Source of the DNA: a virus
Lineage: Duplodnaviria; Heunggongvirae; Uroviricota; Caudoviricetes
Strand: one strand, 5' to 3'
IMG/VR virus record: IMGVR_UViG_2874945390_000006
Span: 1-26,196 of that record
Length of the DNA: 26,196 bases
Shown: positions 2,089 through 19,979 of the stretch, in pieces
How the letters are laid out: each line of letters opens with the position of its first letter
Numbering within the stretch: position 1 is the stretch's first letter
Translations under genes and position numbers: made by a program
Notes under the pieces: generated by a model
What the model was told of the DNA's origin: nothing
Database searches by the model: none
The model's input: only the letters and a program-made list of their open reading frames with translations

Positions 2089-2103
2089 CCACTTCAATCT
2101 GAC

Positions 2104-2181: not shown

Positions 2182-2212
2182 GTAAAAGGTTTCGCCATAA
2201 ATCCTCCTGAAA

Positions 2213-2959
2213 CTACTTAACAACCCTCGAATGGCTAACATTCGGACGCCAGCTCTCCCAGTTAAAATTCACCCAGCGCCCGCCGTTCATGACCATGCGA
2301 TCCATCACCCGCTCGCCGAGAAGTGTATTCATCGCTGCATGGTTAATATTTGTCAGCATCCCCACACCGCGTAACGATGCCGTCCGGCGATCAACAATCT
2401 GGTTCAGTACCACCTGCTCGTTTTTCGTATCCCGCTGCATGCCAATTTCATCCAGGACCAGCAGGTCAACACCACAAAGCTCCTGTAAAAATTTTTCACC
2501 GGATTTGCCGTTGTCGTAGCTCTCATGCAACACGCTCATGACATCGGACACGGTGACGATAATCACGCTACGCCCCTTCGCCATCAGCCGGTTGCCAATC
2601 GCGGCTGCAAGATGATTTTTTCCGGTGCCGGGCTTACCGCTGAACACAAAATTCGTACAGCCTGTCATCAGTTCGTCAGCTATGGATTTCGCCTGACTCA
2701 GTGCATGTCGCTGACCGTCGTTCTGCGCCCGGTAATTCGCAAACGAACACTTCCGGTGCAACGGCTGGATGCCGGAGCGGTTCAGGATTTTTTCCACCCG
2801 CAACTGACGATTCAGGCGGTTGATCTCCTCGCAACGTTTCTGGCCTTCAGCAAGTTGCCACTCGCGCCACTCCGCAACCGTTCTGAATGGGGCGGTTACA
2901 TGTGGTGGGGTCAGTCTGCGGATACGCTCCAGAACGCCTCCTGTCGCAATATTTTTCAT
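2213..2959 (-). CDS. DnaC-like replicative helicase loader (phage replication protein, AAA+ ATPase)
   Basis: 248 aa with Walker A FSGKPGTGKNHLAAAIG, Walker B DLLVLDEIG and the DnaC-like tail LGERVMDRM...FNWESWR; start overlaps the stop of the upstream initiator gene. Confidence 0.85.
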   Translation of the reverse strand: MKNIATGGVLERIRRLTPPHVTAPFRTVAEWREWQLAEGQKRCEEINRLNRQLRVEKILNRSGIQPLHRKCSFANYRAQNDGQRHALSQAKSIADELMTGCTNFVFSGKPGTGKNHLAAAIGNRLMAKGRSVIIVTVSDVMSVLHESYDNGKSGEKFLQELCGVDLLVLDEIGMQRDTKNEQVVLNQIVDRRTASLRGVGMLTNINHAAMNTLLGERVMDRMVMNGGRWVNFNWESWRPNVSHSRVVK

Positions 2960-2965
2960 GGTCTG

Positions 2966-4165
2966 TTACCCCCTGAAGCCTGGCGGGATCGCACTGTCCG
3001 GCAACGAGACGGTGTTAACCTGTCGGAGCAACGTCTCAGGCCGAACACCTTTCGGCGCGAACAGACCCTGGTATTCATTGGCGATGCTGTGTCGAATCAC
3101 CTGCTCAGGTGTAAAACCCTGCTGACGGAATTTTTCCAGTTCCCGTATCGCCCCGTTAGCGCCCTGCTCCGTTCGAATTGGTTTTCGCAATGCCTGCCTG
3201 AACTGGACCCACTCATGCCAGAGTGTTTCTGGCAACCAGTCGGGCAGATCAACTGACAACGGGTCAAATTTTTTCTGGCGAACAGCCCCACCGATAACCA
3301 GAATTCCCTGCTCGGTGTGCCTTGCGATATCACTGCGCCGCAAGACACATATCCCGGTTTCAACAGCACCGATTTTGAGCAGTGATTTCTGTCGCGGAGA
3401 ATTTCGGTCAAGCTCGATCCCACACCGGACACCGTTCCTGTCAGTCACGACGATATCAATCCGCCCTCCGCAACCGTCACCACGCTCTGGCACCGGATAC
3501 TCACGACAGACATCCAGGCCAGCAGCCTGCAACGCAACCACCGCAGAATTACAAAATTCCGCTGCAGTACCGCCAGATAATCTCCCCTCAAGCACTCCAG
3601 CCACAAAATCCCGAAACTCCCTTCCGGAAGGGAAGGGTTTGGGATGGGTTAGATCTGTTTTTAGAGCTTTATCTGTATCTTTATTAGTTGCCTTTGTGTT
3701 GGCATCATGTTCGAACACCACTCCAACATCTGTTTGAACACCTGTTAAATTTCTCTCTTGTTTTGTTTGAACATCTGCTTCCTTTCTGCTTCTTCTGGCC
3801 TGAACAGATGCTTTTCCTGCGGCTGATTTTTTGGTTAATTTTTCTCTGACAGATGCCAGATCTTCCTCAATCCGAAGATGCATCCATTCGTCGCCGTTAT
3901 CACAAAAAAACTCCCGCAAGGATGGTTCAACATCAACCCATCGCTCGTTAGTCAGACGGGCAATTTTTGCCAACCTGTTTTTGGGTATTGGCTTTCCTGT
4001 TTGCCAGTAATTGAACATCAGCAACAAATACGCGCCGTGCTCCTCTGCTGACAAATGCATGGTGTCAGCCAGGTAATCAGCTATGTACAGTTGCATGTAT
4101 GGTAATGCGGCCATAATTGCCCCGTATGATGCTGCCCGGTTGCTTAGAATAAGCACAAACAGCAT
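2966..4165 (-). CDS. Phage replication initiation protein, YdaU/DUF1376-like N-terminus with additional central and C-terminal domains
   Basis: N-terminal region MAALPYMQLYIADYLADTMHLSAEEHGAYLLLMFNYW resembles DUF1376; sits immediately upstream of and translationally coupled to the DnaC-like gene. True start may be the internal ATG at 4114. Central segment GRIDIVVTDRNGVRCGIELD is of unknown function. Confidence 0.55.
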   Translation of the reverse strand: MLFVLILSNRAASYGAIMAALPYMQLYIADYLADTMHLSAEEHGAYLLLMFNYWQTGKPIPKNRLAKIARLTNERWVDVEPSLREFFCDNGDEWMHLRIEEDLASVREKLTKKSAAGKASVQARRSRKEADVQTKQERNLTGVQTDVGVVFEHDANTKATNKDTDKALKTDLTHPKPFPSGREFRDFVAGVLEGRLSGGTAAEFCNSAVVALQAAGLDVCREYPVPERGDGCGGRIDIVVTDRNGVRCGIELDRNSPRQKSLLKIGAVETGICVLRRSDIARHTEQGILVIGGAVRQKKFDPLSVDLPDWLPETLWHEWVQFRQALRKPIRTEQGANGAIRELEKFRQQGFTPEQVIRHSIANEYQGLFAPKGVRPETLLRQVNTVSLPDSAIPPGFRG

Positions 4166-4273
4166 GGAAACTTTTGCTTAATGAACAATGACAGAATCGT
4201 CGGAAGACCTGAGGTAGCCTGAGTTTAACGGACACTCCTTCCTGAAATAGAATGGCATCAGAAGGAGCTAATA

Positions 4274-4576
4274 ATGAGCAGAAAAACCCAACGTTACTCT
4301 AAAGAGTTCAAAGCCGAAGCTGTCAGAACGGTTCTTGAAAATCAACTTTCGATCAGTGAAGGCGCTTCCCGATTATCCCTTCCTGAAGGCACTTTAGGAC
4401 AATGGGTTACCGCCGCCAGAAAAGGGCTCGGTACTCCTGGTTCCCGCACGGTGGCTGAACTGGAATCTGAAATTCTGCAACTGCGTAAGGCGTTAAATGA
4501 AGCTCGCCTTGAGCGAGATATATTAAAAAAAGCAACAGCGTATTTTGCACAGGAGTCGCTGAAAAATACGCGTTAA
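4274..4576 (+). CDS. IS600 OrfA
   Basis: 100-aa HTH protein; A7 run at 4525-4531 is the likely -1 frameshift site into orfB. Confidence 0.85.
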   Translation: MSRKTQRYSKEFKAEAVRTVLENQLSISEGASRLSLPEGTLGQWVTAARKGLGTPGSRTVAELESEILQLRKALNEARLERDILKKATAYFAQESLKNTR

Positions 4577-4611
4577 TCGAACAATGGCGACAACAATTTC
4601 CCATTGAAGCG

Positions 4612-5430
4612 ATGTGTCAGGTATTTGGTGTATCCAGGAGCGGTTATTACAACTGGGTACAGCATGAACCCTCAGACAGAAAACAAAGTGATGAGCGGCT
4701 AAAACTGGAGATTAAGGTGGCACATATCTGCACTCGCGAAACATATGGAACCCGGCGGCTCCAGACGGAGCTGGCAGAGAATGGCATCATCGTTGGTCGT
4801 GACCGACTGGCACGTCTTCGTAAGGAGCTAAGGCTACGCTGTAAGCAGAAACGCAAGTTCAGAGCGACTACGAACCCGAACCACAATCTGCCAGTTGCGC
4901 CAAATCTGCTGAACCAGACGTTCGCTCCTACAGAACCAAATCAGGTCTGGGTGGCGGACCTGACGTATGTTGCCACACAGGAGGGATGGTTGTACCTCGC
5001 TGGCATCAAAGATGTTTATACGTGCGAAATTGTCGGCTACGCCATGGGAGAGCGCATGACAAAAGAGCTGACAGGTAAAGCCCTGTTTATGGCGCTCAGG
5101 AGCCAGCGCCCACCTGCCGGGCTAATCCACCACTCTGATCGAGGTTCACAGTACTGCGCATACGATTACCGGGTCATACAGGAGCAGTTTGGTCTGAAAA
5201 CATCAATGTCGCGTAAAGGTAACTGTTACGACAACACTCCGATGGAAAGCTTCTGGGGAACGCTGAAAAATGAGAGCCTGAGCCACTATCGTTTTAATAA
5301 CCGGGATGAAGCCATCTCAGTAATACGGGAATACATTGAGATTTTCTACAATCGTCAGCGTCGTCACTCTCGTCTGGGGAATATCTCCCCGGCAGCCTTC
5401 AGGGAAAAATATCATCAGATGGCTGCTTAA
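4612..5430 (+). CDS. IS600 OrfB (DDE transposase catalytic part)
   Basis: 272-aa ORF in the -1 frame; that frame is open back to the A7 run, consistent with an OrfAB fusion. Confidence 0.85.
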   Translation: MCQVFGVSRSGYYNWVQHEPSDRKQSDERLKLEIKVAHICTRETYGTRRLQTELAENGIIVGRDRLARLRKELRLRCKQKRKFRATTNPNHNLPVAPNLLNQTFAPTEPNQVWVADLTYVATQEGWLYLAGIKDVYTCEIVGYAMGERMTKELTGKALFMALRSQRPPAGLIHHSDRGSQYCAYDYRVIQEQFGLKTSMSRKGNCYDNTPMESFWGTLKNESLSHYRFNNRDEAISVIREYIEIFYNRQRRHSRLGNISPAAFREKYHQMAA

Positions 5431-5473
5431 AAAAAGAACAAATGGTAGTGTCCGCTATTGCCAGTACACCTCA

Positions 5474-6762
5474 CTCTGGCCTGCTCGCTTTGTCTCTTCA
5501 ACAAAGAAATGGTTATCGGTTTCGGCTCCCGTAAAGAGGAATACGTCGACAGCACCGGTGACCCGAAAGCATTGTTCTGGAAGGCGCGCAAGTTCGTGGA
5601 AACACTACCTGTAGAGTTTCGCGGTTCGTGGAGCGAGAAGAAGCATGCGCCATATATGCGTGTTGAGTTTCCTGAAACTGGCGCGGTTATCAAAGGTGAG
5701 GCTGGCGATAATATCGGTCGTGGTGACCGTACGACCCTTTATTTTGTGGATGAGGCTGCTTTTCTCCAGCGACCATTACTTATTGATGCCGCGCTTTCTC
5801 AGACAACCCGACGTCGTATCGATCTCTCATCGGTTAACGGCATGAACAACCCCTTCGCACAGAAGCGGCACAGTGGAAAAATCCCGGTGTTTACGTTTCA
5901 CTGGCGTAGCGATCCGCGTAAAGACGATGAGTGGTATCACAAGGAGTGCGAGAAAATTGATAACCCAGTCATCGTTGCCCAGGAACTGGATCTTAATTAC
6001 CAGGCATCAGCAGAAGGCATCCTGATCCCCTCAGAATGGGTACAGGCTGCGGTTGATGCACATATCAGACTGGGCATTCAGCCCGGCGGGCAACGGCTTG
6101 GTGCAATGGATGTCGCCGACGAAGGGCGGGATAAAAACGCCTGTTCGCTCCGTTATGGCATCCTGCTGAATGACGTACAGGAGTGGTCAGGTAAGGGGAG
6201 TGACATCTATGACTCTGTGGTTAAGGTTTTTGGTCTGTGCGATGACTTTGGTGCCGATGAGTTTCGCTTTGATGAGGACGGATTGGGTGCTGGCGTTCGT
6301 GGTGATGCGCGCGCTATCAACGAACTGCGTGAAGCGGAGGGCATCTGTCAAATCACCGCCACTCCATTCCGGGGCAGCGGGAGCGTGTTTCATCCTGAAA
6401 ATGAAGCTGTTCCCGGTGATAATGGTAAACCGGCTCGTCTGAATAAGGACTTTTTTGTCAATGCCAAAGCCCAGGGGTGGTGGCATCTTCGCAAATTATT
6501 CCGCAATACATTTCGTGCACTACAGGGTATGGAGTATGACCCGGATGAGATTATTTCCATCAGCAGCACAATGGAAAATAAAGACCGGCTGTTGATGGAG
6601 CTGTCACAACCTACCTGGTCAAAAAATGCCACCGGAAAAATTCTTGTGGATAAGCAACCTGACGGAACGAAATCTCCAAACCTGGCTGATTCTGTGATGA
6701 TTGCTTATGCCCCGATGGAAATGCCCATCGTAATTTCTGATGACTTTATGGAGTGGATCTGA
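5474..6762 (+). pseudogene. Terminase large subunit, 5'-truncated (ATPase Walker A region missing) at the IS600 copy 1 right end
   Basis: Frame is open from the IS boundary; Walker B-like [10 protein letters not shown] is present but no Walker A GxxxxGK[ST] precedes it. Position immediately upstream of the portal gene with a TGATG stop/start overlap. Confidence 0.7.
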
Positions 6763-8303
6763 TGTGGCCGTTTAAACGAAAAGAACCGTCAGCGCCGGCG
6801 GTACCGGACAAACAACCTGAACCACAGCCACCGGAAATTAACGATGAGGTGATCGCTTCCGTCCGGCAGAAACCACGGAGGGAGTTTGTTCGCTATGAGC
6901 CACCACCGGGCGTTATCCCGGCACCGGTTCGCGATGCTGTGCTGGCAATGGATGCAATACCGTATGACACCCTGAACAGTCATTATCCTGATTTTGTTTA
7001 TGGTGGTTTCCCGGGCTATCCGTATCTGGCACTTCAGGCGCAGTTACCGGAGTACCGGCGTATGGTCAGTGTGCTTGCCGAGGAGATGACCCGTAAGTGG
7101 ATAAAGGTTAAGGCGGTCGGAGAAGGGGACGACAGCCACGCGTCACGCATAGCGCAGCTTACTGACGCACTGGAGCACTATAACGTACAGGACGTTTTCA
7201 GACTGGCGATTGAGCACGACGGCTTTTTCGGGCGAGGGCAGATTTATATTGATGTGCGTTCGCCATCGGGTATATCTGCCTGGACTGACCCGGCGGAGCT
7301 GGGATCCGGACTGTTTATTTCCGACAAAAAAATCCCGAAAGGTTCCCTGCTGGGGCTTCGTGTTATTGAACCCGTCTGGACGTATCCGGGTATATATAAC
7401 GCGGATAATCTGCTGAGTGATGATTTTTACCGTCCGTCCGAATGGTACGTAATGGGAAAAACGGTTCACGCCAGCCGCATGATTGATCTGATCTCCCGTC
7501 CGGTTCCGGACATGCTGAAGCCGGCCTACAACTTTGGCGGCCTGTCACTGGTTCAGATTGCTGAGCCTTATGTTGATAACTGGCTGCGAACACGCGACAG
7601 CGTGGGCGATATGCTGCATTCGTTTTCGCTGAGCGGGATTAAGACGGATATGACACAGGTATTAAGTGGTAAAAGGGACCCGAATTACGCAAAACGCGCG
7701 GAGTTGTTTAACCGTACCCGTGATAACCGCGGGCTGCTGATGCTGGACAAGACGAACGAAGAGTTTTTCCAGTTCAACACTCCCCTGAGCGGCCTCGACA
7801 CCCTTCAGGCGCAGGCACAGGAACACATGTTCTTTGTCAGTGCCATACCGTCCGTAAAATTCGCCGGGCTGAGCCCAACGGGACTGAATGCGTCGAGTGA
7901 GGGTGAAATCCGGGTGTTTTACGACACCATTGCTGCACTTGCCACCCGTCTTCTGAAGAAACCGCTGAAAAAGGTGCTGGATATTATCCAGTTGTCTGAG
8001 TTCGGCGATATCGATCCTGATATCACGTTTGAATTTGAACCCCTGCATGAGCTGACGCGCGAGCAACTGGCGAATATCCGTAAAACTGAGGCGGAAACGG
8101 ATCAGATTTATGAGAGCACCGGAGCAGTGACCAATAACGAAGTACGCGAACGGCTGGCGACTGCGCAGGACAGCCCGTACAGCGGTATTGACCTGAGCGG
8201 GGACATCGAAATTGACGACACTGAAATTGACAACACCGAAGAAAATCCGCCGCAAGGCCCGAATGCAGACCCTGAGGCGGATTTCACCCAACGCGGGGAT
8301 TGA
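6762..8303 (+). CDS. Phage portal protein
   Basis: About 513 aa, directly after the terminase (ATG 6762 overlaps terminase TGA 6760-6762, RBS GGAGTGG upstream), with the acidic C-terminal tail typical of portals ([14 protein letters not shown]...). Assigned by position, size and composition. Confidence 0.6.
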
Positions 8304-8421
8304 GGCCTGGTACCGCAGACAACTGGATAATGCCGTCAGTGGGATGCACAACAGTGTACTTTACTGGCTGCGGGCTGAGTACCGTAAAACAGACCTCGCG
8401 CAGGATGCGTCCCCGTTAACC
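8212..8421 (+). CDS. Small ORF overlapping the portal 3' end; possibly the displaced N-terminal part of the head morphogenesis gene
   Basis: 70-codon ORF ending in TGA that overlaps the ATG of the next ORF (ATGA); different frame from 8424-9032. Confidence 0.3.
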
Positions 8422-8423
8422 TG

Positions 8424-9032
8424 ATGCGTGGTGCCATGCAGCAACTTGCCCGGCGCTGGCAGAAAAATTTTGACGAAATGGCCCTGCGGCTGGCGAGGCG
8501 GTTTGCCGGTGATGTCCTGAAAAACAGCGATGCGTCACTGTACACTGCGCTCCGTGATGCCGGGTTTACGGTTCCTTTCCGTATGACAACGGAGATGAAT
8601 ACCGCACTTCAGGCCAGCATCACGGAGAATGTGAACCTCATTCGCTCCATCCCGCAGCAACATCTCCCCCAGGTGGAAACACTGGTCATGCAGTCTGTTG
8701 GCCGGGGACGTGACCTGAAAACGCTGACCGATGAACTGGAAAAACGTTACGGCATCACACGACGGCGCGCGGCGCTGATTGCCCGCGACCAGAACAATAA
8801 GGCAACGTCGGTAATGCAGGCCGCCAGACAGCGTTCGGTGGGTATCACTGAAGGTGTCTGGAGGCATTCCCGCGCGGGTAAAACATGGCGTCCGTCGCAT
8901 GTGAAGGCGAACGGTAAACGGTTTGACCTGCGAAAGGGGATGTTTCTGGATGGTAAGTGGGTACTGCCGGGCGAAGAAATCAACTGCCGGTGTGGCTGGG
9001 AGGCCGTTATTCCCGGACTGGAGAAAAAATGA
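8424..9032 (+). CDS. Phage head morphogenesis protein (Mu F / SPP1 gp7-like minor head protein)
   Basis: 202 aa; C-terminal region ...[24 protein letters not shown]...[31 protein letters not shown] resembles the Mu F domain; located after the portal gene. Confidence 0.65.
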
Positions 9033-10378
9033 TTATTACCGAAATGCTGGCGTTTGACCGGGCATCGGTAAGGCAGTTCGATAAAGTCGGTCGCCTCCAG
9101 ATTGAGCGCAGTAATCTCAGCAAGGCGAACGTCTGCGGTTATTTCGGGTATGAAATACCGGGGGCGGAAGCGCTGGGACTCGACCCCAAAAAACTTTATC
9201 AGCTTTACCGTGACCCCGATGAACTGCGCAAGGCAGTTTCAACCTTCAACAATATTCCCGTCCTGTGCCGACACAAACCCGATTATCCGGGCGCGCCCGC
9301 GCGCGAGTACCGGGTGGGGACGACTCATGCCAACAGCGAGTTTGACGGTACCTATCTGGTTAACGGCATGTCCATCTGGGACAACTCCGCCATCGCGGGG
9401 ATAGAAACGGATGAACAACGGAAAATCTCATCGTCATATGCCTATGTGGCAGATATGACGCCGGGAACCACCCCCGACGGTGAGCCGTATGACGGCGTTA
9501 TGCGGAATATCGTGGGAAATCATGTGGCCCTGGTCGGCGATGGCCGGGTAGGGTCGGACTGTCTTGTTATGGACTCTCTCCCTCAGGAGCTAAAACGCAT
9601 GAAACTGAGTAAAAAAGAAGTGGCGGTGCTTATCGCGCTGGGAACCTATCTTGCGCCGCGTCTGGCGCAGGATGCGGCTCCCGGGGATTTGTTACGCCTG
9701 ATGGCGCAGTATAAGCGTCCGGCAGCTATCGCCAGCGCGGTAAAAACTGCTTACAGCGAACGGCTGGCACAGGATATGGATATTGAACCGGCGGAGCTGG
9801 CGCAACTGATGGAATCAGCAGAAGCCGTACCGGAGCTGGTCGGGGATGATGATACCGGGTTAACTGACGAGTCGAAGGCATTTGATACCGACAGCCCGAT
9901 GGAAAGTGTACTGGCGTTGCTGTCCGGCAAAGTTCCTGATGATGTGCTGGAAAAAATTAAATCCGCACTGTCTCCGACAACCGACGAAGCCCCCGAAACA
10001 AAAGAGGCTGATGTGAAACCCGACGATGTGAAAGTCGATAAACCTGCGATGGATGCAGCAATCAGGCTGGCAACTGACCAGGCAACGAAACGGGCTGCTG
10101 AAAATTTCCGCGCCGTCCGTGTGGCTGAAGCTGAAGTGCGACCGCTGATTGGCGATGTGGTGGCGATGGACTGCGCCGAAGATGTTTACCGTACCGCGCT
10201 GGAACAGACGGGGATCGATATTCAGGGTATTCACCCCGGTGCGTACCGCAGCATGGTGAAGTTTGCCGTTGAGCAGAAGCAGACGGCCAAATCCTCTCCC
10301 CGTGTGGCGATGGATCAGGCCAGCGCATCGACGTTTGCGGCAGATTTCCCCGGTGCAAAACTGAAACGAGGTTACTGA
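9029..10378 (+). CDS. Putative prohead scaffold/protease protein (DUF2213-like N-terminus, acidic helical C-terminus)
   Basis: Likely start ATG 9029 ([23 protein letters not shown]...), overlapping the upstream stop; the track ORF starts earlier at 8957. Acidic Ala/Glu/Asp-rich C-terminal half typical of scaffolding proteins; sits between morphogenesis and capsid genes. Confidence 0.45.
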
Positions 10379-10379
10379 T

Positions 10380-10862
10380 ATGAATACTTTTCAGACACAC
10401 ATGAACCAGTACCCGGCACCGGGTATTCCGGGGGCGTTTGCCAGTGCTAACCCTCATGCCTCGTATGTGGCGGGAGATGGCGGGCTGATTACCGGCCCTG
10501 ACGGGCTGGTAATTGCCCGGTTTGCCTGGGTAACCAAAGGTGTTGCCGCTAATAAGGGGGCCGGCGCACCGGCGGGTTTTGTTCCTCGTGACGGGCAGGC
10601 TTCCATTGTGGAATGGCTGGCCGGGGACTCGAACACCATTTATCCGGGGCGTGAATGCACCCTGATGGTGTCGGGGGATTTCTGGGCGCTGACCACCACT
10701 ACTGCGACGATCGGGCAGAAAGTATTTGCCTCACTGGCCACCGGGGAGATAGCCACGGGGGCGGCTGGCACCTCGATGGCGGGGTTTGTCGAAACCTGGT
10801 TTTCCGTTGCCAGCGCTGCGGCGGCAAAAGAAGTCATTAAGATCAGTACCTGGAGCAAATAA
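10380..10862 (+). CDS. Putative capsid decoration / small head structural protein
   Basis: 160-aa Gly/Ala-rich protein immediately upstream of the major capsid gene, 2 bp after the preceding stop. Confidence 0.4.
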
Positions 10863-11890
10863 TGAATAAATTTAAACAGCATTATGCGACGGCAAGTCGC
10901 GACTACGGGATTATTCTTCCCGGAGCACAGGCTTATTTGCCGAAGGAGTACGCTGCCGATTACGGACTGGCGATGGACGCGCAGCCTGCGCTGGTCACAG
11001 CGGCTAACAGCGGTATCCCTGCGTATTTCACCAATTACGTTGAGCCAGAACTGATCCGCGTGCTGGTGACGCCGATGAAAGCCGCTCAGATTCTGGGCGA
11101 AACCAAAAAAGGTGACTGGACGACACTGTCGGCACAATTCCCGATTGCAGAATCTGACGGGGAGGTGAGTTCCTACGGGGATTACAGCAACAACGGGGTG
11201 GTAAGCGCAAACGTCAACTGGGTACCGCGCCAGAGCTATCACTTCCAGACCTTCACCGTATGGGGCGAACGTGAGCTGGAGATGTACGGCGCAGCCCGTA
11301 TTGGCTGGGCGGCAGAGCTGAACGTGGCGTCAGCACTGACGCTGAATAAGTTCCAGAATAAGTCCTATTTCTACGGTATTGCCGGACTGACGAACTACGG
11401 TTTGCTGAATGATCCGTCGTTATCTGCACCAATCACCCCGGATACCGTTGACGGTAAACTGAAGTGGGACGACAAGGACGGACAGGGCGTGTATGACGAT
11501 ATCGTGAAACTCTTTGAGCAACTGGTGAAACAGACTAACGGTCATATTGAGCGTACCGACAAAATGAAACTGTGCATGTCGCCGCTGGCAGAGGTGAACC
11601 TCACCAAAACAAACCAGTACAGGGTTAACGTGTCCGATCTGCTGGCGAAAAATTTCCCGGCGATGACCATTGAAACGGCGGTGGAATACACCTCTGACGC
11701 TGGCGAGCTGGTACAGCTTATCGCGGAGCGTCTGGGTGAACAGGATACAGGCTATTGCGCTTTCACTGAAAAAATGCGCGCCCATGCGGTAGTGGCAGAT
11801 ACGTCTTCCTGGAAACAGAAAAAATCCGCTGGTACCTGGGGGGCGATTATTCGCCAGCCGCTGGCGTATGCACAAATGCTGGGGGTGTGA
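10862..11890 (+). CDS. Major capsid protein
   Basis: 342-aa ORF in the canonical position after scaffold and decoration genes; ATG overlaps the upstream stop (TAATG). Confidence 0.6.
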
Positions 11891-11893
11891 GTT

Positions 11894-12241
11894 ATGGCTG
11901 AAATGGTAACAGTGGGCTGTAAACTGCCGAACGGTCTGGTGCTGGAAGTGGGTCAGAAACGGGTTCAGGTGGCAGGCTGGCGGAATAACGCGGTTAAAAT
12001 TGTGGGGGGCTATGGTCTGACGCAGGTCGATAAGGTGTTTTTTGACGCCTGGCTGGCGGAGCACGGACAGCAACCTTATGTGAAAAATGGCGTTATTTTT
12101 GCGCAGGATAAGGCGAACAGTGCAGTCTCGCAGGCTACGGAGCAGAAAGCCGTTAAATCCGGCCTTGAACCGCTGCCGCAGAAAAATCCGGCTCCGGGCG
12201 TTAACCGCAATGATGAAGTGATGGGTAAACCTCAGGAGTAA
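11894..12241 (+). CDS. Hypothetical small head-associated protein
   Basis: 115-aa ORF tightly packed between the capsid and connector genes; no recognisable motif. Confidence 0.4.
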
Positions 12242-12246
12242 ACGCT

Positions 12247-13278
12247 ATGGGTACGGTGACGTTTGACTGTCGGATGTTTGTCAGTCTGTACCCGGAGTTT
12301 TCCACGGTGACACCGGAGCTACTGACGGCGGTGTTTAACCAGGCGACCGCGTTGTACCTGGATAACACGGACGACAGTCCGGTTACCGACCTGAAGGAGC
12401 GGGAACAGCTTCTGTTCCTGCTGGTTGCGCATCTGTGCGCATTGCGGGGGCTGGGAAACGGGAGAGACGGGCAGGCTGGTCTGGTGGGGCGTATCACCAG
12501 TGCGTCGGAAGGTTCTGTATCGGTATCGGTGGATAATAGCGGCAGTAATGATGCGTCGTGGTGGTATCTCCAGACCCCCTGGGGTGCTGACTACTGGCAG
12601 GCGACAGCGCCATACCGCTCAATGCAGTATCATTCCGGGGGGCACCTTCGCGATATCCGGGGCATTATTACCGGGGATACGGGAGGGGCGTCGATGGTAA
12701 ATAAAGTCACAGGTGGCAAACAGTTCCGGCAGACGCTGAAACAGGTTGCCGCGAACCTTTCATTGGGTAAAAAACTCAAAGTGGGTTTTCTTGAGGGAGC
12801 AACTTACCCTGACGGTACGTCAGTGGCTTATATTGCCGCAGTTCAGGAGTTTGGCGGAAGAGCGGTCATACCCGCCCGTGAGCAGACGCTCCACTTTCGC
12901 TATAACGAAAAAACGGGAGAAACCGGGCACCGCTTTGTCAAAGCCGGTAAAGGGAATTTTGTTCAGGATGTGGTTATTCCTGAGCACACGGTCACCATTC
13001 CCCCCCGTCCGTTCTTCCGTAAGATGATCGAACATAAAAGTCCCGAATGGGGCGAAAAAATGGCGACCTTATTACGGGCGAATGATTTTGATACTGCGAC
13101 CGCTCTGGTGTGTATGGGAGAACATATCAAAGGGCAGTTGCAGATGTCTGTTCGCGACTGGGAAAGTCCGCCCAACGCTGCATCCACTGCCCGGCAAAAG
13201 GGTTTTAACAACCCGCTTATTGAAACCGGACATATGATGGACAGCGTTGATTATTCTGTAGACGGGGGCAAAAAATGA
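12247..13278 (+). CDS. Head-tail connector-like protein (DUF4054-like N-terminal region fused to an HK97 gp10-like C-terminal region)
   Basis: 343 aa; N-terminal [38 protein letters not shown]... resembles DUF4054; C-terminal part (...[36 protein letters not shown]...) resembles gp10-family tail-completion proteins; Gly-rich linker between them. Confidence 0.4.
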
Positions 13279-13640
13279 ACTTTCACGGTATTGTTTCCGG
13301 CGCAGTACGTCGGGTAAATCCCTTTACAGACGCGCTGGTTTATCGTTCCCGCGGGAGTACACAGCAGGCAGATTATTCCCGCGTACCTGAGTATGAAGAT
13401 CCGGTTTCCGTCAGGGTGCAAAAGCAGGCTGTCACTCAGGCTGATTTACGTCATCTTGATAATCTTAACCAGCAGGGAGTTTTCGCCACATTGTATACCG
13501 ATGGTAACTGGTGCGGGCTTAACCGTGCCCGGCAACAGGGAGGCGATAAATTTGTTATTGGCGATGAAACGTGGCTGGTGATTGAGGTACCGGAAATCTG
13601 TCCTGACTGGACGAGGGTTATTGTATGCCTTCAGGTGTGA
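13275..13640 (+). CDS. Hypothetical phage head-tail joining protein
   Basis: 121-aa ORF overlapping neighbours in the usual ATGA style; position between connector and neck genes. Confidence 0.4.
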
Positions 13641-14171
13641 CCCTCTCCGTTACGGAAAGCGCTCTTTATCAGGCCCTCGGTGATTATCTCCGGGGGCTTT
13701 TTTTCTGATGCCGGGATTGAACGAACGCAGCAGAACCAGGTCCCGATGCCTCAGGGGAATTTCATCACCATGACGGGCATTGATGTTACCGGATTATCCA
13801 CTGCGGTAGTGGCATATTCTGCGCCAGCGCAGGCTGGTGAGGGCTCTCAGCATATCACCCGTACCACAAAATGGCGTTGCCAGCTTGATTTCTACGGCCC
13901 TCACGCGGCAGATAACGCGCAGGTGCTGGCAACGCTTTTCCGGTCTGAATTTTCCGTACGGCTTTTCCGGCAGGGCGGTGGGCTGATTTCCCCGCTGTAT
14001 TGCTCAGAGCCCTTTAACACCACATTCCCCAACGGTCAGCAACAGTATGAACCGCGCTGGACGCTTGATATTCAGATGCAGATTAACCCTGTGGTCACAA
14101 CTTCCCTGATGTTTTTTGACAACGTGATCACCCGGACAACGGAGGCTGATAATGCCAATTCCACTCAGTAA
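13625..14171 (+). pseudogene. Neck/tail terminator-like structural gene interrupted by a +1 frameshift in a T7 homopolymer (13698-13704)
   Basis: ATG 13625 with RBS GAGGG 8 nt upstream gives [27 protein letters not shown] and stops at 13706-13708; the remainder of the protein (SDAGIERTQQNQVPMPQG..., track ORF 13680-14171) continues in the +1 frame. Removing one T from the run fuses the two. Confidence 0.5.
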
Positions 14172-15636
14172 AGATGTACAGATAAATCCCGGTGTGCTGG
14201 CTGTGGCGGGTAATGCCGTCGATCTTAACGGCCTGCTGTTGACCAGTAATCCGTTACTTCCGGTCGGCACTGTGGTTCCGTTTTCCTCTCCGGATGATGT
14301 GGCCGCGTATTTTGGTGCATTATCCGATGAGTACGCACGCGCTCAGCTTTATTTCCAGGGCTTCAAAAATGCCACCAGGACGCCGGGGCAATTGTTGTTT
14401 TCCCGTTTCAGTCCTGCCCCATCGGCGGCCTGGTTACGTAGCGGTTCGTTTAAGGGCGCGACTGTTGAACAGCTACAAAAACTTTCCGGCACGCTGATGC
14501 TGAGTATTAACGGGAAAAGCGTCAGCATTGAAGTGAATTTTAACGGTGTCGCCAGCTTCGCCGCTGCTGCAACGGCACTACAGACAGCGCTGACCGCAGC
14601 AGTGGCTACAGTGGTATTCGATACCACACAGAATGCTTTTGTCATTACTGTCGCCGGGGCGAAACCCGAGAGTACCACGATAACGTTCGGCAGTGGATCG
14701 GCAGCAGAACTCCTGAAGATGACCAGTAACACCGGTGCGGTGATATCCCGGGGCGCGCCTGTATCTGATGTCCCTGACACAATGGCAGCCATTAAGGCCG
14801 CTTCCCAGCAATGGGCGGGTTTTTCCACGGTATCTGAGGTCACTGACGAGCAACACCTGGCGTTTTCTGCATGGGCAAACGGGCAGGGCAAGCGTTACTT
14901 TTATGTGGCATGGACAACCAGCGGCAACGCCAGAGTAAAAGGCAGTACTGAACACATCGCTTACCAGATAATTGCTGTCAATAACTACAGCTCTGTTGTA
15001 CCTGTTTTCGCGACTGATGGTAACCGGGCTGCAGCGGTACTGGGGTATGCAGCGTGCCTTGATTTTGTCCGACCAGAGGGGCGTGTATCATTCAAGTTCC
15101 GCGAGTATGAGGGGCTGGCCGCTGATGTTACCAGTGGCAGCGATTATGATGCGCTGATCGCCGCAGGTTACAATTTCTACGGAAAATATGCGGAAAACAG
15201 TGTGGTGGAAGATTACTGGGCGGATGGCACTATTACCGGTGATTTTAAATGGCTGGACAGTTTCTGCGGGCAAATCTGGCTGAATGCCAGTTTGCAGGGG
15301 GCGGTGATCGCGTTATTCAAGTCAAACCAGACGATCCCCTACAACAATGAAGGGCGGGCGCTGGTTGCAGCGTCAATGAGTGACGTTATCCAGCAGTACA
15401 AACGCTGGGGAGGGATCCGTGAAGGGGGGACACTGACGGAGGCGCAGAAGAAACAGATTAACAATGTTGTGGGGGCAGATGTTTCTTCAACGTTGTTTGC
15501 CACCGGCTATTACCTGTATATCGGCGATATGCTTCCCTCTTTGCGGGCAACCCGTAGCAGTCCGTCCTGTACGCTCTGGTACTGTGACGGCGGTAGTATC
15601 CAGAAACTTGTTATTGCATCCACGGAGGTCCAGTAA
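14152..15636 (+). CDS. Contractile tail sheath protein (DUF3383-like)
   Basis: 494 aa, RBS GGAGG 8 nt upstream of ATG 14152; size and sequence character of phage sheath proteins; followed directly by a tube-sized gene. Confidence 0.7.
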
Positions 15637-16083
15637 ATGTCGGGTAACAACAACACCATCACTGCGGCGGATGCCATTATCACGCTGACAGTGAATAATC
15701 TGTATCCCTCCGGCGTACGACTTCAGGGATTTGCAACAGATAACGTTTATGGCACCGATCCACTGGTACTGGCGGAAACTGCCCGCGGTATTGACGGTAA
15801 ACTGTCCGCGGGATTTGTGTACAGCAACATTATCCAGACGTTTCATATCATGCCGGATTCCCCCAGCCGGGATATTTTTGATACTTGGTTAACCACATCC
15901 CGGGCCAGTCGGGCTGTATTCCGTTGTAACGCTGTCGTCCTGCTTCCGGCGATTGGCCGTAAATATACCTGCGTGAATGGCGTACTCAAACAATGGAAAG
16001 CGCTGCCTGATGCAGCTCGTACGTTGCAGCCAGGGCAGGCGGTTATTGAGTGGGAAACCATTACTCCGGAGGTTTTTAACTGA
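15637..16083 (+). CDS. Tail tube protein
   Basis: 148 aa, GGAGG RBS, directly downstream of the sheath gene. Confidence 0.6.
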   Translation: MSGNNNTITAADAIITLTVNNLYPSGVRLQGFATDNVYGTDPLVLAETARGIDGKLSAGFVYSNIIQTFHIMPDSPSRDIFDTWLTTSRASRAVFRCNAVVLLPAIGRKYTCVNGVLKQWKALPDAARTLQPGQAVIEWETITPEVFN

Positions 16084-16487
16084 TGGCCCGTAAAGAGAAA
16101 TTTATCACTATTGAAGGTCAGGGACGGGATAAGGGCAAGGTATTTCATCTTACCGAAATGTCTGCCTCACAGGCGGAATGGTGGGCGATGCGTGCCATTA
16201 TGGCAATGGGGCGTGGTGGCGTGGAGTTACCGGATGATGTTCGTAGTCTGGGGATGGCTGCGCTTGCCCTTGAAGGGCTGAAAGCATTATCGAAAATTCC
16301 GCCTGATGAGGCGCGTCCGTTGATGGATGAAATGATGGACTGTGTGCAGTTTGTTCCCGATCCGAAAAAACGCAGCATCCGGAGACCGCTTGTTGAAGAG
16401 GATATTGAAGAAATCATTACCCGTCTTAATCTGCGTGCGGAGGTCTTTAAGCTGCATGTGGATTTTTTCGCTACCGTCGTCAGCTAG
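16083..16487 (+). CDS. Tail assembly chaperone (pre-tape-measure gene)
   Basis: 134-aa acidic protein between the tube and tape measure genes; ATG overlaps the tube stop. Confidence 0.45.
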   Translation: MARKEKFITIEGQGRDKGKVFHLTEMSASQAEWWAMRAIMAMGRGGVELPDDVRSLGMAALALEGLKALSKIPPDEARPLMDEMMDCVQFVPDPKKRSIRRPLVEEDIEEIITRLNLRAEVFKLHVDFFATVVS

Positions 16488-16528
16488 ATATCCCCCCGCG
16501 TTATCTCGACCCCGACAGACCGTTCGGG

Positions 16529-16711
16529 GTGGTGGATTACGTTAATGTTCCCCGTACCATTGCGACCGTTATCTCCTCCGGTAAGGCTTCAAAAGCTGAA
16601 CTGGATTCTGTCCTTGGTGTGCAGGACTTATGGGATCTGCTGGAAATAATTCATGTGGATGCCCATAACGAACAGGTGATACAGGAGAACAGAAATGGCG
16701 CAGGTACTTGA
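16529..16711 (+). CDS. Small hypothetical ORF preceding the tape measure gene (possible second chaperone component)
   Basis: 60-codon ORF with GTG start; overlaps the tape measure start by 17 nt; does not overlap the chaperone ORF. Confidence 0.3.
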   Translation: MVDYVNVPRTIATVISSGKASKAELDSVLGVQDLWDLLEIIHVDAHNEQVIQENRNGAGT

Positions 16712-16776
16712 TGAGCTTGTTCTGTCCCTCGGGATTGATGACAGGGACTTTACTGCCGGGGAACAGGCAGTACATG

Positions 16777-16779
16777 CTG
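16777..16779. repeat. 3-bp target-site duplication (CTG), left copy, of IS600 copy 2
   Basis: CTG immediately before the IS end at 16780 matches CTG at 18044-18046. Confidence 0.7.
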
Positions 16780-16822
16780 TGAGGTGTACTGGCAATAGCG
16801 GACACTACCATTTGTTCTTTTT

Positions 16823-17641
16823 TTAAGCAGCCATCTGATGATATTTTTCCCTGAAGGCTGCCGGGGAGATATTCCCCAGACGAGAGTGACGACGCTGACG
16901 ATTGTAGAAAATCTCAATGTATTCCCGTATTACTGAGATGGCTTCATCCCGGTTATTAAAACGATAGTGGCTCAGGCTCTCATTTTTCAGCGTTCCCCAG
17001 AAGCTTTCCATCGGAGCGTTGTCGTAACAGTTACCTTTACGCGACATTGATGTTTTCAGACCAAACTGCTCCTGTATGACCCGGTAATCGTATGCGCAGT
17101 ACTGTGAACCTCGATCAGAGTGGTGGATTAGCCCGGCAGGTGGGCGCTGGCTCCTGAGCGCCATAAACAGGGCTTTACCTGTCAGCTCTTTTGTCATGCG
17201 CTCTCCCATGGCGTAGCCGACAATTTCGCACGTATAAACATCTTTGATGCCAGCGAGGTACAACCATCCCTCCTGTGTGGCAACATACGTCAGGTCCGCC
17301 ACCCAGACCTGATTTGGTGCTGTAGGAGCGAACGTCTGGTTCAGCAGATTTGGCGCAACTGGCAGATTGTGGTTCGGGTTCGTAGTCGCTCTGAACTTGC
17401 GTTTCTGCTTACAGCGTAGCCTTAGCTCCTTACGAAGACGTGCCAGTCGGTCACGACCAACGATGATGCCATTCTCTGCCAGCTCCGTCTGGAGCCGCCG
17501 GGTTCCATATGTTTCGCGAGTGCGGATATGTGCCACCTTAATCTCCAGTTTTAGCCGCTCATCACTTTGTTTTCTGTCTGAGGGTTCATGCTGTACCCAG
17601 TTGTAATAACCGCTCCTGGATACACCAAATACCTGACACAT
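16823..17641 (-). CDS. IS600 OrfB (transposase catalytic part)
   Basis: 272 aa, near-identical to the copy 1 OrfB (I/R, E/A and T/A differences). Confidence 0.85.
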   Translation of the reverse strand: MCQVFGVSRSGYYNWVQHEPSDRKQSDERLKLEIKVAHIRTRETYGTRRLQTELAENGIIVGRDRLARLRKELRLRCKQKRKFRATTNPNHNLPVAPNLLNQTFAPTAPNQVWVADLTYVATQEGWLYLAGIKDVYTCEIVGYAMGERMTKELTGKALFMALRSQRPPAGLIHHSDRGSQYCAYDYRVIQEQFGLKTSMSRKGNCYDNAPMESFWGTLKNESLSHYRFNNRDEAISVIREYIEIFYNRQRRHSRLGNISPAAFREKYHQMAA

Positions 17642-17676
17642 CGCTTCAACAGGGAATTGTTGTCGCCATTGTTCGA

Positions 17677-17979
17677 CTAACGCGTATTTTTCAGCGACTC
17701 CTGTGCAAAATACGCTGTTGCTTTTTTTAATATATCTCGCTCAAGGCGAGCTTCATTTAACGCCTTACGCAGTTGCAGAATTTCAGATTCCAGTTCAGCC
17801 ACCGTGCGGGAACCAGGAGTACCGAGCCCTTTTCTGGCGGCGGTAACCCATTGTCCTAAAGTGCCTTCAGGAAGGGATAATCGGGAAGCGCCTTCACTGA
17901 TCGAAAGTTGATTTTCAAGAACCGTTCTGACAGCTTCGGCTTTGAACTCTTTAGAGTAACGTTGGGTTTTTCTGCTCAT
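17677..17979 (-). CDS. IS600 OrfA
   Basis: 100 aa, identical to the copy 1 OrfA; T7 run 17722-17728 is the reverse complement of the slippery A7. Confidence 0.85.
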   Translation of the reverse strand: MSRKTQRYSKEFKAEAVRTVLENQLSISEGASRLSLPEGTLGQWVTAARKGLGTPGSRTVAELESEILQLRKALNEARLERDILKKATAYFAQESLKNTR

Positions 17980-18043
17980 TATTAGCTCCTTCTGATGCCA
18001 TTCTATTTCAGGAAGGAGTGTCCGTTAAACTCAGGCTACCTCA

Positions 18044-18046
18044 CTG
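18044..18046. repeat. 3-bp target-site duplication (CTG), right copy, of IS600 copy 2
   Basis: See left copy at 16777-16779. Confidence 0.7.
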
Positions 18047-19979
18047 CCCTTAACCGGCTCACGACGGTGATGGAAGGTGTCGCTGACACATTCAGTCAGG
18101 GACAGAAGAAAACCAGTGAATCACTGGAAAAAACCGGAAAAGATGCTGATAAAACGGCCCGTCGAATGGAAGATGCCGGGAAACGGGCGTCCCGTTTTTT
18201 TTCAGGGATCCGTAGCGAGATTCTGGCTCTTGCGGGTGTCAGTCTGACGCTGGGGGGGCTGAAGAACCTGGTAACAGGTTTTGCCCGTGATCTGAACCGT
18301 CTGTCCGTGGAATCTGATGCTTTTGGCATGAAGGCCAGAAATCTGGACGGATGGTTACGGGCTGCGCGGGCAAATAATGTTGATGAAGGGGAAATGTCTG
18401 GGGCATTTTCCCGGCTTGCAAATGCAAAAGCGGCCTTCAGAGCCGGAAGGTCCTTTGATCCTGTGTTACAGGATTTGTTTCAGGTTGCAGCCAGGGCGGG
18501 CATTAGTGTTGATTTAAATACTGACAGCACTGAAGCCATCATGCGCAAGCTGGCGGTTATTTTTCCGCGACTGACAAAGTCCGAACAAACTGCCTACGGC
18601 AACGCGCTGGGCTTCAGTTATGCCGGACAGCAGTTTCTTGGCTCCGGTCATGCGCTGAAAGATGTGGACGAATTTACTTCCCGTTCGCAGGTTACGCCGG
18701 AGCGTATAGCGCTGGCCCGTAAGCTACGAAAAGAGCTTGTTGAGCTCGAACAGACCTGGTCCGGCATCGGGATGACGATTAGCACCGCGTTGATGCCGTA
18801 CGCGCTGAAGCTCAGCCACTGGCTGGAGACACTCGGTGACTGGATGCAGCAACATCCGGAGGAAGTGAACAGGTTTATCACCACATTTCTGAATGACGTT
18901 GAGTCAGTGGCCTCCCTGGCGAATAAGGCTGCCGGAGAACTGGGGGGCTGGCAGAATGTCATTATTACGCTGATCGGGCTGAAAGTGGCGTCATGGGTGC
19001 GGGGGCTGACAAAAGCCCTCAGTGGCCCCGGAGGCCTTCTTTTTGCGATAACGGCGCTTTACCCGGTTGTTGACGGATTACTGACATCCATTGTTGGCAG
19101 GGAAAATAAGGACTGGCTGGATTCACATGGTTTTTTCTGGGCTTCAGACGGGACTTTCTTTTTCAATAAGAAAGAGATGGAGACGTATCAGACAAAACTG
19201 GATGCCGGAGAAAAGCCTGGCAACATCACCCGGGCACAATCACCCACAGTATGGCAGCAGGGCATGCTGGATACTCAGGCTTCTCAGGCAACCGGGAGGG
19301 AAGCAGCCTTCGGTGAATCCTGGCTACAGGGTATGCGTGCGACGCAGGAAAAACTCGGTAATGCCATGCAAAACCGCCAGCGACCGACGAAGACCGGGGA
19401 AGCCCTGTTAGGCTGGCTGCAACCGAAACTGTCTCAACTGGAGGAAAAATATAACCTGCCGCCCGGACTGCTGCGCAGCGTTGCGATCACCGAATCCCGT
19501 GGTAATCAGTTTGCCGTCTCACCTGCTGGTGCGATGGGACTGTTTCAGTTCATGCCGAAGACGGCCAGTGAATTTGGTCTGAGGGGGAACGATGCCTTTG
19601 ATCCCGAAAAAGCCGCTGATGCCGCCGCGAGAAAACTTGGTGGCCTGATACGTTTTTTTCATGGCGATCTGGCTAAGGCTCTGGCGGCATATAACTGGGG
19701 AGAGGGAAATGTTCAGCGTAAGGGACTGGCTGCTGCTCCGGAGGAGACCCGCAACTATATTCCGCGGGTGCTGGCGAACCTGCCTTATCCGGGTGCGGCA
19801 ATGGCCATACGGTCGCGCCATCCTGCGCCTGTATCGCAGTCCACCGTAACGGAAACCACGCATATCGGGACACTGAATGTCACCACAACGTCGGACAATG
19901 TGAAGGGTATTACCGATGACGCACGTCGGCGTATCACGAATTCGGCGCTTGTGTCGGTTTATTCCAGCGGGGTAACAGG

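Follow-up and report, generated by a model that had tools for sequence, protein, structure and literature searches.

Probable dismantling of a Rac-site prophage of Shigella boydii by insertion sequences: one IS600 copy as a plain insertion, the other as a rearrangement junction

Introduction

Shigella chromosomes carry 229–348 insertion sequences (ISs) each, and IS600 and IS911 belong to the five families that have expanded in every Shigella (PMC7373316); IS-flanked inversions of 20–130 kb have become fixed in S. sonnei lineages (PMC12795559). The IS600-driven decay described in Shigella and EIEC shares with the locus considered here the element itself (99.4–100% identity), the 3-bp duplication, the host group and the outcomes, namely gene disruption, deletions, inversions and pseudogenised prophages, with no difference in kind. 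Rac-type lambdoid prophages at ttcA share the site (ttcA–intR), the gene series ydaT–ydaU–ydaV(dnaC)–DUF977 and the right border sit–uspF with its sitABCD cargo, and EIEC prophages with an E217/DUF3383-type contractile-tail module (CFSAN029787, VL40 and RMDEC strains) are 99.7% identical in that module. In contrast to these intact Rac-type and EIEC prophages, the present locus is missing ~17–18 kb, its replication block is inverted, its tape-measure gene is split, and an IS66-family element replaces ~5 kb of baseplate genes. The geometry of two inverted ISs around a passenger is also that of compound transposons of the Tn10/Tn5 type, from which the locus differs in having no common outer duplication, one arm with a duplication of its own, and a dead phage module as passenger. 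Neither this IS600 pair nor the Rac-site inversion-plus-deletion of CP026836 was found in the literature searched.

The prophage and its borders

The window, the whole 26,196-nt stretch of DNA analysed here (IMG/VR record IMGVR_UViG_2874945390_000006), has Shigella boydii CP026836 as its source genome (organism as given in PMC12817139), and from its sequence and neighbours it is identified as a defective Rac-site prophage running from ttcA to uspF (Table 1). At the left border, a tyrosine integrase gene remnant (intR′), which matches the same-site relative's intR (L034rc 13701–14548) at 99.9% identity, adjoins ttcA–dbpA–ynaL–zntB, which lie just outside the window in the source genome; at the right border the source genome has sitDCBA–Usp, the Usp gene being annotated as uspF in the E. 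coli matches. The sit–uspF adjacency is present in 476 E. coli genomes, and in several EIEC strains it comes directly after the matching structural module.

Table 1. Features of the window, with positions counted from its first letter
Feature	Position	Strand	Details
intR (Rac-type integrase), 3′ 847 nt	1–847	−	Pfam Phage_integrase; stop codon 1–3; 5′ 388 nt missing
IS911	848–2096	+	1249 bp; TGAAGTGG...CCACTTCA; IS3-family OrfA/OrfB; flanks ATA / ATC mismatched
Inverted replication block, 2.1 kb	2097–4209	−	Pfam DUF1376, IstB_IS21
DUF977, 5′ 34 codons	2097–2212	−	Inverted block
ydaV (DnaC-like)	2213–2959	−	Inverted block
ydaU	2966–4165	−	Inverted block
ydaT, last 32 nt	4178–4209	−	Inverted block
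IS600 copy 1	4210–5473	+	1264 bp; orfA 4274–4576, orfB 4612–5430; consensus + 3 private nonsynonymous SNPs
Orphan bases CT	5474–5475		Between IS600 right end and start of terL homology
terL, 3′ part (nt 334 / codon 112 to stop)	5476–6762	+	PHROG terminase large subunit; 99.7% identical to annotated TerL
Head, neck and tail-sheath module	6762–16694	+	Native order and orientation; portal, MuF-like, DUF2213, cement, major capsid, connectors, neck terminator, sheath (14152–15636), tube, chaperones
Tape-measure gene (lytic-transglycosylase-domain), first 85 nt	16695–16779	+	Left CTG copy 16777–16779
IS600 copy 2	16780–18043	−	1264 bp; consensus + 4 SNPs clustered in 28 bp; CTG duplication
Tape-measure gene, remainder	18044–19983	+	Right CTG copy 18044–18046
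IS66-family element	20431–23189	+	tnpA, tnpB, split tnpC; terminal repeats GTAAGCGCCCC / GGGGCGCTTAC

ISs make up 25% of the window, and the prophage, which is dead, is without regulation, lysis, terS and the N-terminus of terL; its tape measure is broken and most of its baseplate is gone. The IS66-family element, whose 8-bp flanks are mismatched and which stands in place of the baseplate genes, is part of the same decay and does not belong to the IS600 pair. In the CP026836 sequence there are three homopolymer differences, at about 8410, 12636 and 13698.

The IS600 pair

An earlier note, made from the letters alone, had described two IS600 copies in opposite orientation around the structural genes, and this description stands: the bracketed 11.3 kb extends from terL without codons 1–111 through tape-measure codon 28. 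An inverted repeat of 1265 nt (4210–5474 and 16779–18043; 99% complementary, 11,304 nt between the arms) encloses the exact element limits given in Table 1, each copy reading TGAGG...CCTCA, with 7 mismatches between the two. Both copies have the terminal sequences TGAGGTAGCC...GTACACCTCA, with the length and the imperfect terminal inverted repeats (5′-TG...CA-3′) of IS600. Their assignment to this element is borne out by RefSeq E. coli records, which label matching sequence of ~99% identity as ‘IS3-like element IS600 family transposase’, and by the IS600 of locus L004 (strain VL7S7), to which a chimera of both copies is identical; each copy lies 3–4 nt off the consensus, itself identical to the L004 copy, and both exceed 95% nucleotide identity to IS600. 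The encoded domains are HTH_Tnp_1 and rve (NCBIfam transpos_IS3), and an A7 run at about nt 315–321, together with an orfB frame open from nt 304, gives both copies the orfA/orfB arrangement for which −1 frameshifting is predicted; the transposase reading frames are open in both. At 20–54 IS600 copies per Shigella chromosome, chance alone leads one to expect 0.5–3.5 inverted pairs no more than 11.3 kb apart per genome; so close a pair is within what chance gives, and the repeat as such lies far outside it.

The 3-bp target duplication of IS600 is found at copy 2, where direct reading gives ACATGCTG, IS, CTGCCCTT (CTG / CTG), and is absent from copy 1. Three IS-free relatives (L001, L003 and L004) have an empty site, GTACATGCTGCCCTTAACC, with a single CTG exactly at the position of copy 2, so that the duplication noted earlier from the flanks is real and not a 1/64 coincidence. 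By comparison with these sites, copy 2 is shown to be a simple insertion by ordinary transposition into tape-measure codon 29, apparently unchanged since, and every contig of a sister isolate that extends as far as the tape-measure site shows its junction.

The module between the copies is collinear with that of L003 at 99.7% identity, and in IS-free relatives it is co-oriented with the downstream tail genes. Since this orientation is the native one, the parity of the inner segment is at present the same as when copy 2 inserted, and the claim that no inversion has taken place since then holds in the sense of zero or an even number of flips. A past crossover between the copies, considered from their complementary SNP pattern, was unsupported: a search of 5,426 genomes of E. 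coli, a set outside S. boydii, did not turn up an all-variant parent (P2), the best match being at 99.4% and the same as the consensus, and the differences accordingly look private to each copy. The tracts identical between the two copies measure 125–366 bp, and a RecA-dependent crossover between them could invert the 11.3-kb module; with identical tracts of up to 366 bp, it is reasonable to call the pair, as the earlier note did, a ready substrate for inversion. Because so many functions of the prophage have been lost, no phenotypic effect would be evident from such a flip, and in sister isolates without copy 1 the question is moot.

The copy 1 junction

Copy 1 is flanked, on direct reading, by GGAAGACC and CTCTGGCC (ACC / CTC), and renewed reading of the boundary gave no 3-bp duplication, in agreement with the mismatch first reported. 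The N-terminal 111 codons of terL are missing from the locus, and at the position of the two orphan bases native terL reads GA (codon 111, GGA; L001 and L003). A terL allele with a natural CTC, which would make CTC a normal duplication, was rejected, as the alignment to terL begins at 5476 in 40 of 40 records drawn at even spacing from a set of 347 E. coli genomes. The orphan CT can be explained neither as a target duplication nor as a direct joint between IS and target, and it is not predicted by recombination between normally inserted IS600 copies, where the expected flank is GAC. Copy 1 is shown by these comparisons to be a rearrangement junction, joining the last 32 nt of ydaT to terL codon 112, and at such a junction no duplication is expected. 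An ancient ydaT–IS600 junction common to S. boydii and S. flexneri was also considered and is absent from 10 S. flexneri loci, in which IS600 lies 56 bp from the S. boydii junction position, inside ydaU codon 4.

In the intact same-site relative, EIEC CFSAN029787 (Rac site), the gene order is ttcA–intR–xis–...–cro–ydaT–replication–DUF977–...–Q–tRNAs–lysis–terS–terL–portal. Against this relative, positions 1–848 of the window align forward, 2097–2218 (DUF977′) in reverse and 5476–9000 forward, and the 21,755 bp that separate intR from terL codon 112 there correspond to 4,627 bp here, composed of IS911, the inverted 2.1-kb replication block and IS600 copy 1. The IS911, 100% identical to that annotated in L004, joins intR′ to the inverted block. 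The block as a whole is 99.86% identical to positions 13198–15310 of L002, in forward alignment, while window positions 1–848 align to L002 in reverse; relative to both intR and terL, the block is thus reversed in comparison with intact relatives. Missing near copy 1 are the early-left operon, the immunity region, Q, tRNAs, lysis genes, terS and terL codons 1–111, in all ~17–18 kb; in the same-site relative the corresponding blocks are L034rc 14549–22274 and 25591–36303.

These comparisons sustain part of the claim that copy 1 marks an adjacent deletion: DNA is missing beside it, as the contraction from 21.8 kb to 4.6 kb makes plain, but a plain deletion does not account for the inverted block or for the mismatched flanks of IS911. 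Deletion alone cannot invert an adjoining block, and at least one inversion together with the ~17–18 kb loss is needed; on the alignments, copy 1 marks an inversion plus loss that also involves IS911.

Sister isolates and the loss of copy 1

One complete genome of the lineage is present in the collections (CP026836), the other assemblies being contigs that break at ISs; about 16 short-read sister assemblies yield contigs of 10–20 kb from the locus. Those inspected cover window positions 5446–16808 and end in IS600 ends, with junctions identical to those of CP026836. Both IS600 copies appear on this evidence to be conserved in the lineage, although copy 1 has been lost in some sister isolates. 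Neither the inverted isomer nor an intermediate (inversion without deletion) was found in the other assemblies, all of which break at ISs; short-read contigs stop inside the IS, and the junctions between IS end and flank are the same in both inversion isomers.

Copy 1 is lost in GCA_003572455.1 and SRR6760302, through a deletion of 1390 bp that comprises the element, 123 bp beyond IRL and 3 bp beyond IRR; one endpoint lies exactly 3 nt outside IRR, and at the other, 123 bp beyond IRL, there is 1 nt of microhomology. The SRR6760302 unitig begins exactly where the IS-less path departs from intact ydaU, and copy 1 excision may still be going on in culture. The event resembles IEE-enhanced excision of IS629 and IS600, for which a strand-switch model has been proposed, in that the whole IS600 and adjacent DNA are removed with an endpoint at IRR+3, and differs from it in that the S. 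boydii event is inferred from genome comparison. A model of bridged intermediates with primer strand switching predicts such deletions (bioRxiv 10.1101/2023.06.07.543989; PMC9397093). Primer strand switching could account for the 1390-bp excision, with its end exactly at IRR+3 and its 1 nt of microhomology, and the CTC that stands beside IRR in place of native GAC may represent a circle-junction spacer that was retained. That the copy 1 junction and the sister-isolate derivative are both natural footprints of IS3-family copy-out chemistry is put forward tentatively, as a reading somewhat unlikely to be correct; if true, it would make the locus a ready natural setting in which to test, with or without IEE, how IS600 is proposed to be excised in Shigella.

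History of the locus

The reading preferred here, and considered highly probable on the comparisons above, is that a Rac-site prophage was dismantled by ISs in a two-step history within one prophage, copy 2 being a plain insertion and copy 1 and IS911 rearrangement junctions. This is the simplest history, and two paths would lead to it. In one, inverted IS911 copies in intR and in DUF977 would have recombined and flipped the early region, after which an IS600-associated deletion would have removed ~18 kb from ydaT to terL; in the other, inverted IS600 copies in ydaT and terL would have inverted the stretch that begins at the replication genes, takes in lysis and ends with terL′, and an IS911-associated deletion would then have taken out the rest. 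Both paths yield the exact observed product, which does not distinguish between them; copy 1 would be the deletion endpoint on the first and the inversion endpoint on the second.

A single adjacent deletion, caused or joined by the inserted copy 1 and with nothing else at the junction, was the version of the earlier note; it agrees with the lack of a target duplication at copy 1 and with the gap beside it, which takes in terL codons 1–111 and extends upstream to the replication genes. Such a deletion would, however, leave the remaining DNA in its orientation, whereas positions 2097–4209 are reversed against terL and intR in comparison with every intact relative; a second IS with mismatched flanks, IS911, bounds the block, and the two orphan bases would go unexplained, all of which makes this version very improbable. 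Rather less improbable, though still unlikely, is that copy 1 is the scar of IS600 recombination between two prophages, one Rac-type with ydaU/dnaC and one ipaH-type with the structural module, which would imply, with the same low probability, a large chromosomal inversion or patchwork replacement and a ydaU block that is not native. EIEC VL40 does hold a ydaU arm (at 2.30 Mb, 99.8% identical) and a structural module (at 1.23 Mb) in different prophages, and in S. flexneri the partner on the far side of IS600 copies near ydaU varies, being either a LysR-family gene or one for a holin. Where relatives have this structural module at the same site, replication genes of another kind (HTH + DnaB type) accompany it. 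The nearest matches of the ydaU/dnaC block are in prophages whose late genes differ (L002) or which lie at other loci (VL40), and the block may possibly have originated outside this prophage; phage mosaicism alone, however, can account for a different replication module. Against two prophages there is also the evidence of the borders, both native and co-oriented (ttcA–intR on the left, sit–uspF on the right), with the structural module in precisely the place beside sit–uspF that it occupies in EIEC relatives at this site; had there been a single large inversion, these borders would have been parted.

The pair could be taken, finally, for a functional unit, either a composite transposon (IS600–module–IS600) or the product of replicative intramolecular transposition, given near-identical inverted copies around a passenger segment and open transposase frames in both. 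The compound transposon was rejected on the outer flanks, which differ (ACC on the left, CTG on the right), and on the separate direct duplication of copy 2, whose empty site was verified; that duplication, the inner segment, collinear and not inverted against the downstream genes, and the 7 differences, with private changes in each copy, led to rejection of the replicative inversion product. The IS3 family uses an IRL–IRR circle junction, and here IRL stands at both outer ends. A functional unit is scarcely credible on these grounds, less so than any other reading, and the two-step dismantling of one Rac-site prophage is retained.

Implications

The locus represents ordinary IS-driven prophage decay, a well-resolved case of IS600, IS911 and an IS66-family element dismantling a Shigella prophage, and has little import beyond bookkeeping. 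For annotation, it is best treated as the remnant of a single Rac-site prophage in which the replication block is inverted, terL lacks codons 1–111 and the tape-measure gene is split. It also carries a caution, that the absence of a target duplication does not by itself mean an adjacent deletion. A mildly useful lead is offered by the IS-less junction of the sister isolates, whose endpoint at IRR+3 fits the strand-switch excision proposed for copy-out-paste-in ISs.

The IS600 pair and copy 2

A repeat search of the window returned a single inverted pair (4210-5474 and 16779-18043; 1265 nt, 99% complementary, spacer 11,304 nt), whose borders, once read, delimit two IS600 elements of 1264 bp each (TGAGGTAGCC...GTACACCTCA), the 1265th matching base being a chance match. 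Both encode an HTH OrfA (100 aa) and an rve/DDE OrfB (272 aa), with an A7 slippery run and an orfB frame open from nt 304; RefSeq E. coli annotation of the matching sequence reads 'IS3-like element IS600 family transposase' (~99% identity). The earlier note's observation is thereby confirmed as a whole, in limits, inverted arrangement and flanks: copy 2 lies between CTG and CTG, and re-reading of copy 1 upheld the mismatched ACC / CTC, a matching 3-bp duplication being absent. Copy 2 is placed 85 nt inside the tape-measure (lytic-transglycosylase-domain) gene, and the empty site in three IS-free relatives, L001 and the EIEC strains VL40 (L003) and VL7S7 (L004), carries one CTG precisely at the insertion point (..GGCAGTACATGCTGCCCTTAACCGG..), so that copy 2 is a simple insertion with a 3-bp duplication, as had been proposed.

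Coordinates of the features discussed, in window numbering
Feature	Position	Orientation	Details
intR match	1-848	forward	99.9%; alignment to CFSAN029787
IS911	848-2096		1249 bp
DUF977 match	2097-2218	reverse	alignment to CFSAN029787
IS600 copy 1	4210-5473	+	
terL (from nt 334) and portal match	5476-9000	forward	99.7%; alignment to CFSAN029787
Tape-measure gene ATG	16695		
IS600 copy 2	16780-18043	-	
IS66-family element	20431-23189		terminal repeats GTAAGCGCCCC / GGGGCGCTTAC; tnpC split, 334- and 187-aa ORFs

Chromosomal site of the prophage

An exact YdaU protein match was found in one chromosome, CP026836.1 (GCA_002950135.1, 5.11 Mb), recorded as Shigella boydii (PMC12817139). The left neighbours of the window are ttcA, dbpA, ynaL and zntB, and on the right the remaining tail-fibre genes are followed by sitDCBA and a Usp gene; the structural module of the window directly adjoins sit-uspF in several EIEC strains. 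Taken together, the ttcA and sit-uspF sides identify the whole element as one prophage that fills the ttcA-uspF interval, the Rac site. At its right end (right of the window; L006 16418-20480) the iron/manganese transporter genes sitDCBA stand beside uspF, a cargo and border that recur in 476 E. coli genomes. VL40 and VL7S7 carry the same structural module at other chromosomal sites, followed by ipaH effectors (ipaHb, ipaH3) and not by sit (L003 33402-35228; L004 27642-29357), and also have IS600 insertions at differing sheath-gene positions.

Rearrangement at copy 1

A nearly intact prophage occupies the same site in EIEC CFSAN029787, in the order ttcA-intR-xisR-...-recE-...-repressor/cro-ydaT-replication-DUF977-...-Q region-four tRNAs-holin-RrrD-lysis-terS-terL-portal-..., with all genes from cro on co-directional. 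Aligned in window orientation, 4,627 bp of the window stand for 21,755 bp of CFSAN029787 between the two outer breakpoints. An agreeing outcome (window 1-848 reverse, 2097-4209 forward) comes from FDAARGOS_944, whose Rac-type prophage (L002) shares the ydaU/dnaC module at 99.86% identity, and from both alignments the local order is intR'(-), IS911, an inverted DUF977'-dnaC-ydaU-ydaT' block (all -), IS600 copy 1 and 'terL (+). IS911, which matches an annotated IS911 at 100% identity and likewise has mismatched flanks (ATA / ATC), links intR, truncated at its 5' end, to the DUF977' end of the inverted block; this is a further rearrangement junction, at a distance of 2.1 kb from copy 1.

Comparison with CFSAN029787 also defined the DNA gone from the locus as two stretches. 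One, of ~7.7 kb, extends between the 5' part of intR and the 5' part of ydaT and includes xis, recE and the immunity region; the other, of ~9.4-10.7 kb, extends between the 3' part of DUF977 and terL codon 111 and includes Q, the tRNAs, lysis and terS. The interpretation offered earlier is thus partly supported: the duplication and orientation of copy 2 stand, and DNA is indeed missing at copy 1, but an adjacent deletion is an incomplete account, because a deletion leaves orientation unchanged and the neighbouring block is reversed.

Two equally short histories each yield exactly the observed product. Two IS911 copies in opposite orientation, lying in intR and in DUF977, may have recombined to flip the early region, after which an IS600-associated deletion would have taken out ~18 kb between ydaT and terL, and the earlier note would be right about copy 1. 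Alternatively, two oppositely oriented IS600 copies, in ydaT and in terL, may have recombined to flip the replication-to-terL' segment, an IS911-associated deletion then removing the remainder, and copy 1 would be an inversion endpoint. An intermediate state separating the two was not found in collections holding one complete genome of the lineage. Derivation of the ydaU block from another prophage has some support, in that VL40 carries the ydaU block and the structural module in different prophages, and same-site relatives carrying the window's structural module have a DnaB-type replication module; it is, however, less likely, given that the locus has a native chromosomal border on either side and that the two are co-oriented.

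In S. flexneri, an independent IS600 lies in ydaU codon 4 (..AATAAG|TGAGG; L016 6206-7469, with equivalents in L014-L023). It is separated from the S. boydii site by 56 bp and agrees with it in relative orientation. Depending on the strain, the partner on its far side is a LysR-family gene or a gene for a holin; this small region has thus been struck repeatedly.

Orphan bases and loss of copy 1

Homology to terL starts at 5476, not 5474; beside the IS600 right end, 5474-5475 read CT, where native terL has GA in every sampled E. coli allele. This CT is explained neither by a normal duplication (GAC expected), nor by a direct end-to-target joint, nor by a simple transposition or recombination model; one possibility is that CTC represents the kept 3-nt spacer of an IS3-family circle junction. 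Sister isolates vary at this junction. Contigs of SRR4787860, ERR200292 and ERR5888630 match the window (CCTCA|CTC|TGGCC). GCA_003572455.1 and SRR6760302 join window 4086 straight to 5477 (..CAGCTATG-T-GGCC..; L025 2015-2075, L028 1-60), a 1390-bp deletion (window 4087-5476) of 123 bp of ydaU/ydaT', the entire copy 1 and CTC, so the inverted pair is absent from these isolates. The deletion ends precisely 3 nt beyond IRR on the right and at a 1-nt microhomology on the other side, endpoints that fit the prediction of the bridged-intermediate, primer strand-switch model for excision of copy-out-paste-in ISs (bioRxiv 10.1101/2023.06.07.543989); IS600 excision with flanking deletions is documented in STEC (PMC9397093). 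The SRR6760302 unitig (L028 1-31) starts at the very 31-mer where the IS-less path leaves intact ydaU, hinting that this read set contains both forms, or a second ydaU copy.

Possible inversion of the module and its consequences

In Shigella reference chromosomes ISs number 229-348, and the five families expanded in all Shigella species include IS600 and IS911; Sb227, Sf301 and Sd197 have 20, 35 and 54 copies of IS600 (PMC7373316). These counts predict, by chance, 0.5-3.5 inverted IS600 pairs per genome at a spacing of up to 11.3 kb, a figure uncorrected for the ease with which dead prophages tolerate insertion. Lineage-fixed inversions flanked by ISs are described in S. sonnei (PMC12795559), and the pair is a known element with known behaviour.

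The segment between the copies is collinear and co-oriented with the downstream tail genes of IS-free relatives, which, with the intact CTG / CTG, places the module in the orientation in which copy 2 inserted; 'no inversion since', as had been claimed, strictly becomes no flip at all or an even number of them. The copies differ at seven positions, copy 1 having the consensus at 367-394 and the variant at 520, 725 and 1027, and copy 2 the reverse. Reciprocal exchange, a first impression from these SNPs, gained no support from chimera searches: the all-consensus chimera is identical to the L004 IS600, and the all-variant chimera had no match better than the consensus itself among 5,426 E. coli genomes, so the differences are best read as private to each copy. 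Four, all private to copy 2, cluster within 28 bp (IS600 nt 367-394; window 4576-4603 and 17650-17677) at the orfA stop/orfB overlap; the three private to copy 1 each replace an amino acid of OrfB (R>C, A>E, A>T).

The copies share identical tracts of 366, 301, 237, 204 and 125 bp, long enough for RecA-dependent recombination, and on this sequence basis inversion of the module is plausible. Complete genomes of the lineage in collections number one, short-read contigs end within IS600, and the IS-end/flank junctions are the same in both isomers.

The IS share of the window is 25%. The IS66-family element, with mismatched 8-bp flanks (GGACAAGA / ATTGGTAC), stands in place of ~5 kb of baseplate genes that VL40 has. 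Homopolymer differences at ~8410, ~12636 and ~13698 (C4 vs C5, G6 vs G7, T7 vs T6), found only in the window's assembly as against all Illumina-based sister contigs, make the MuF-like, gp27-like and neck-terminator genes look frameshifted or fused, and are probably long-read consensus errors. In a prophage without immunity and early-left region, Q, lysis, terS and the terL N-terminus, with its tape measure split and ~5 kb of baseplate genes replaced, a flip of the module would be inconsequential.
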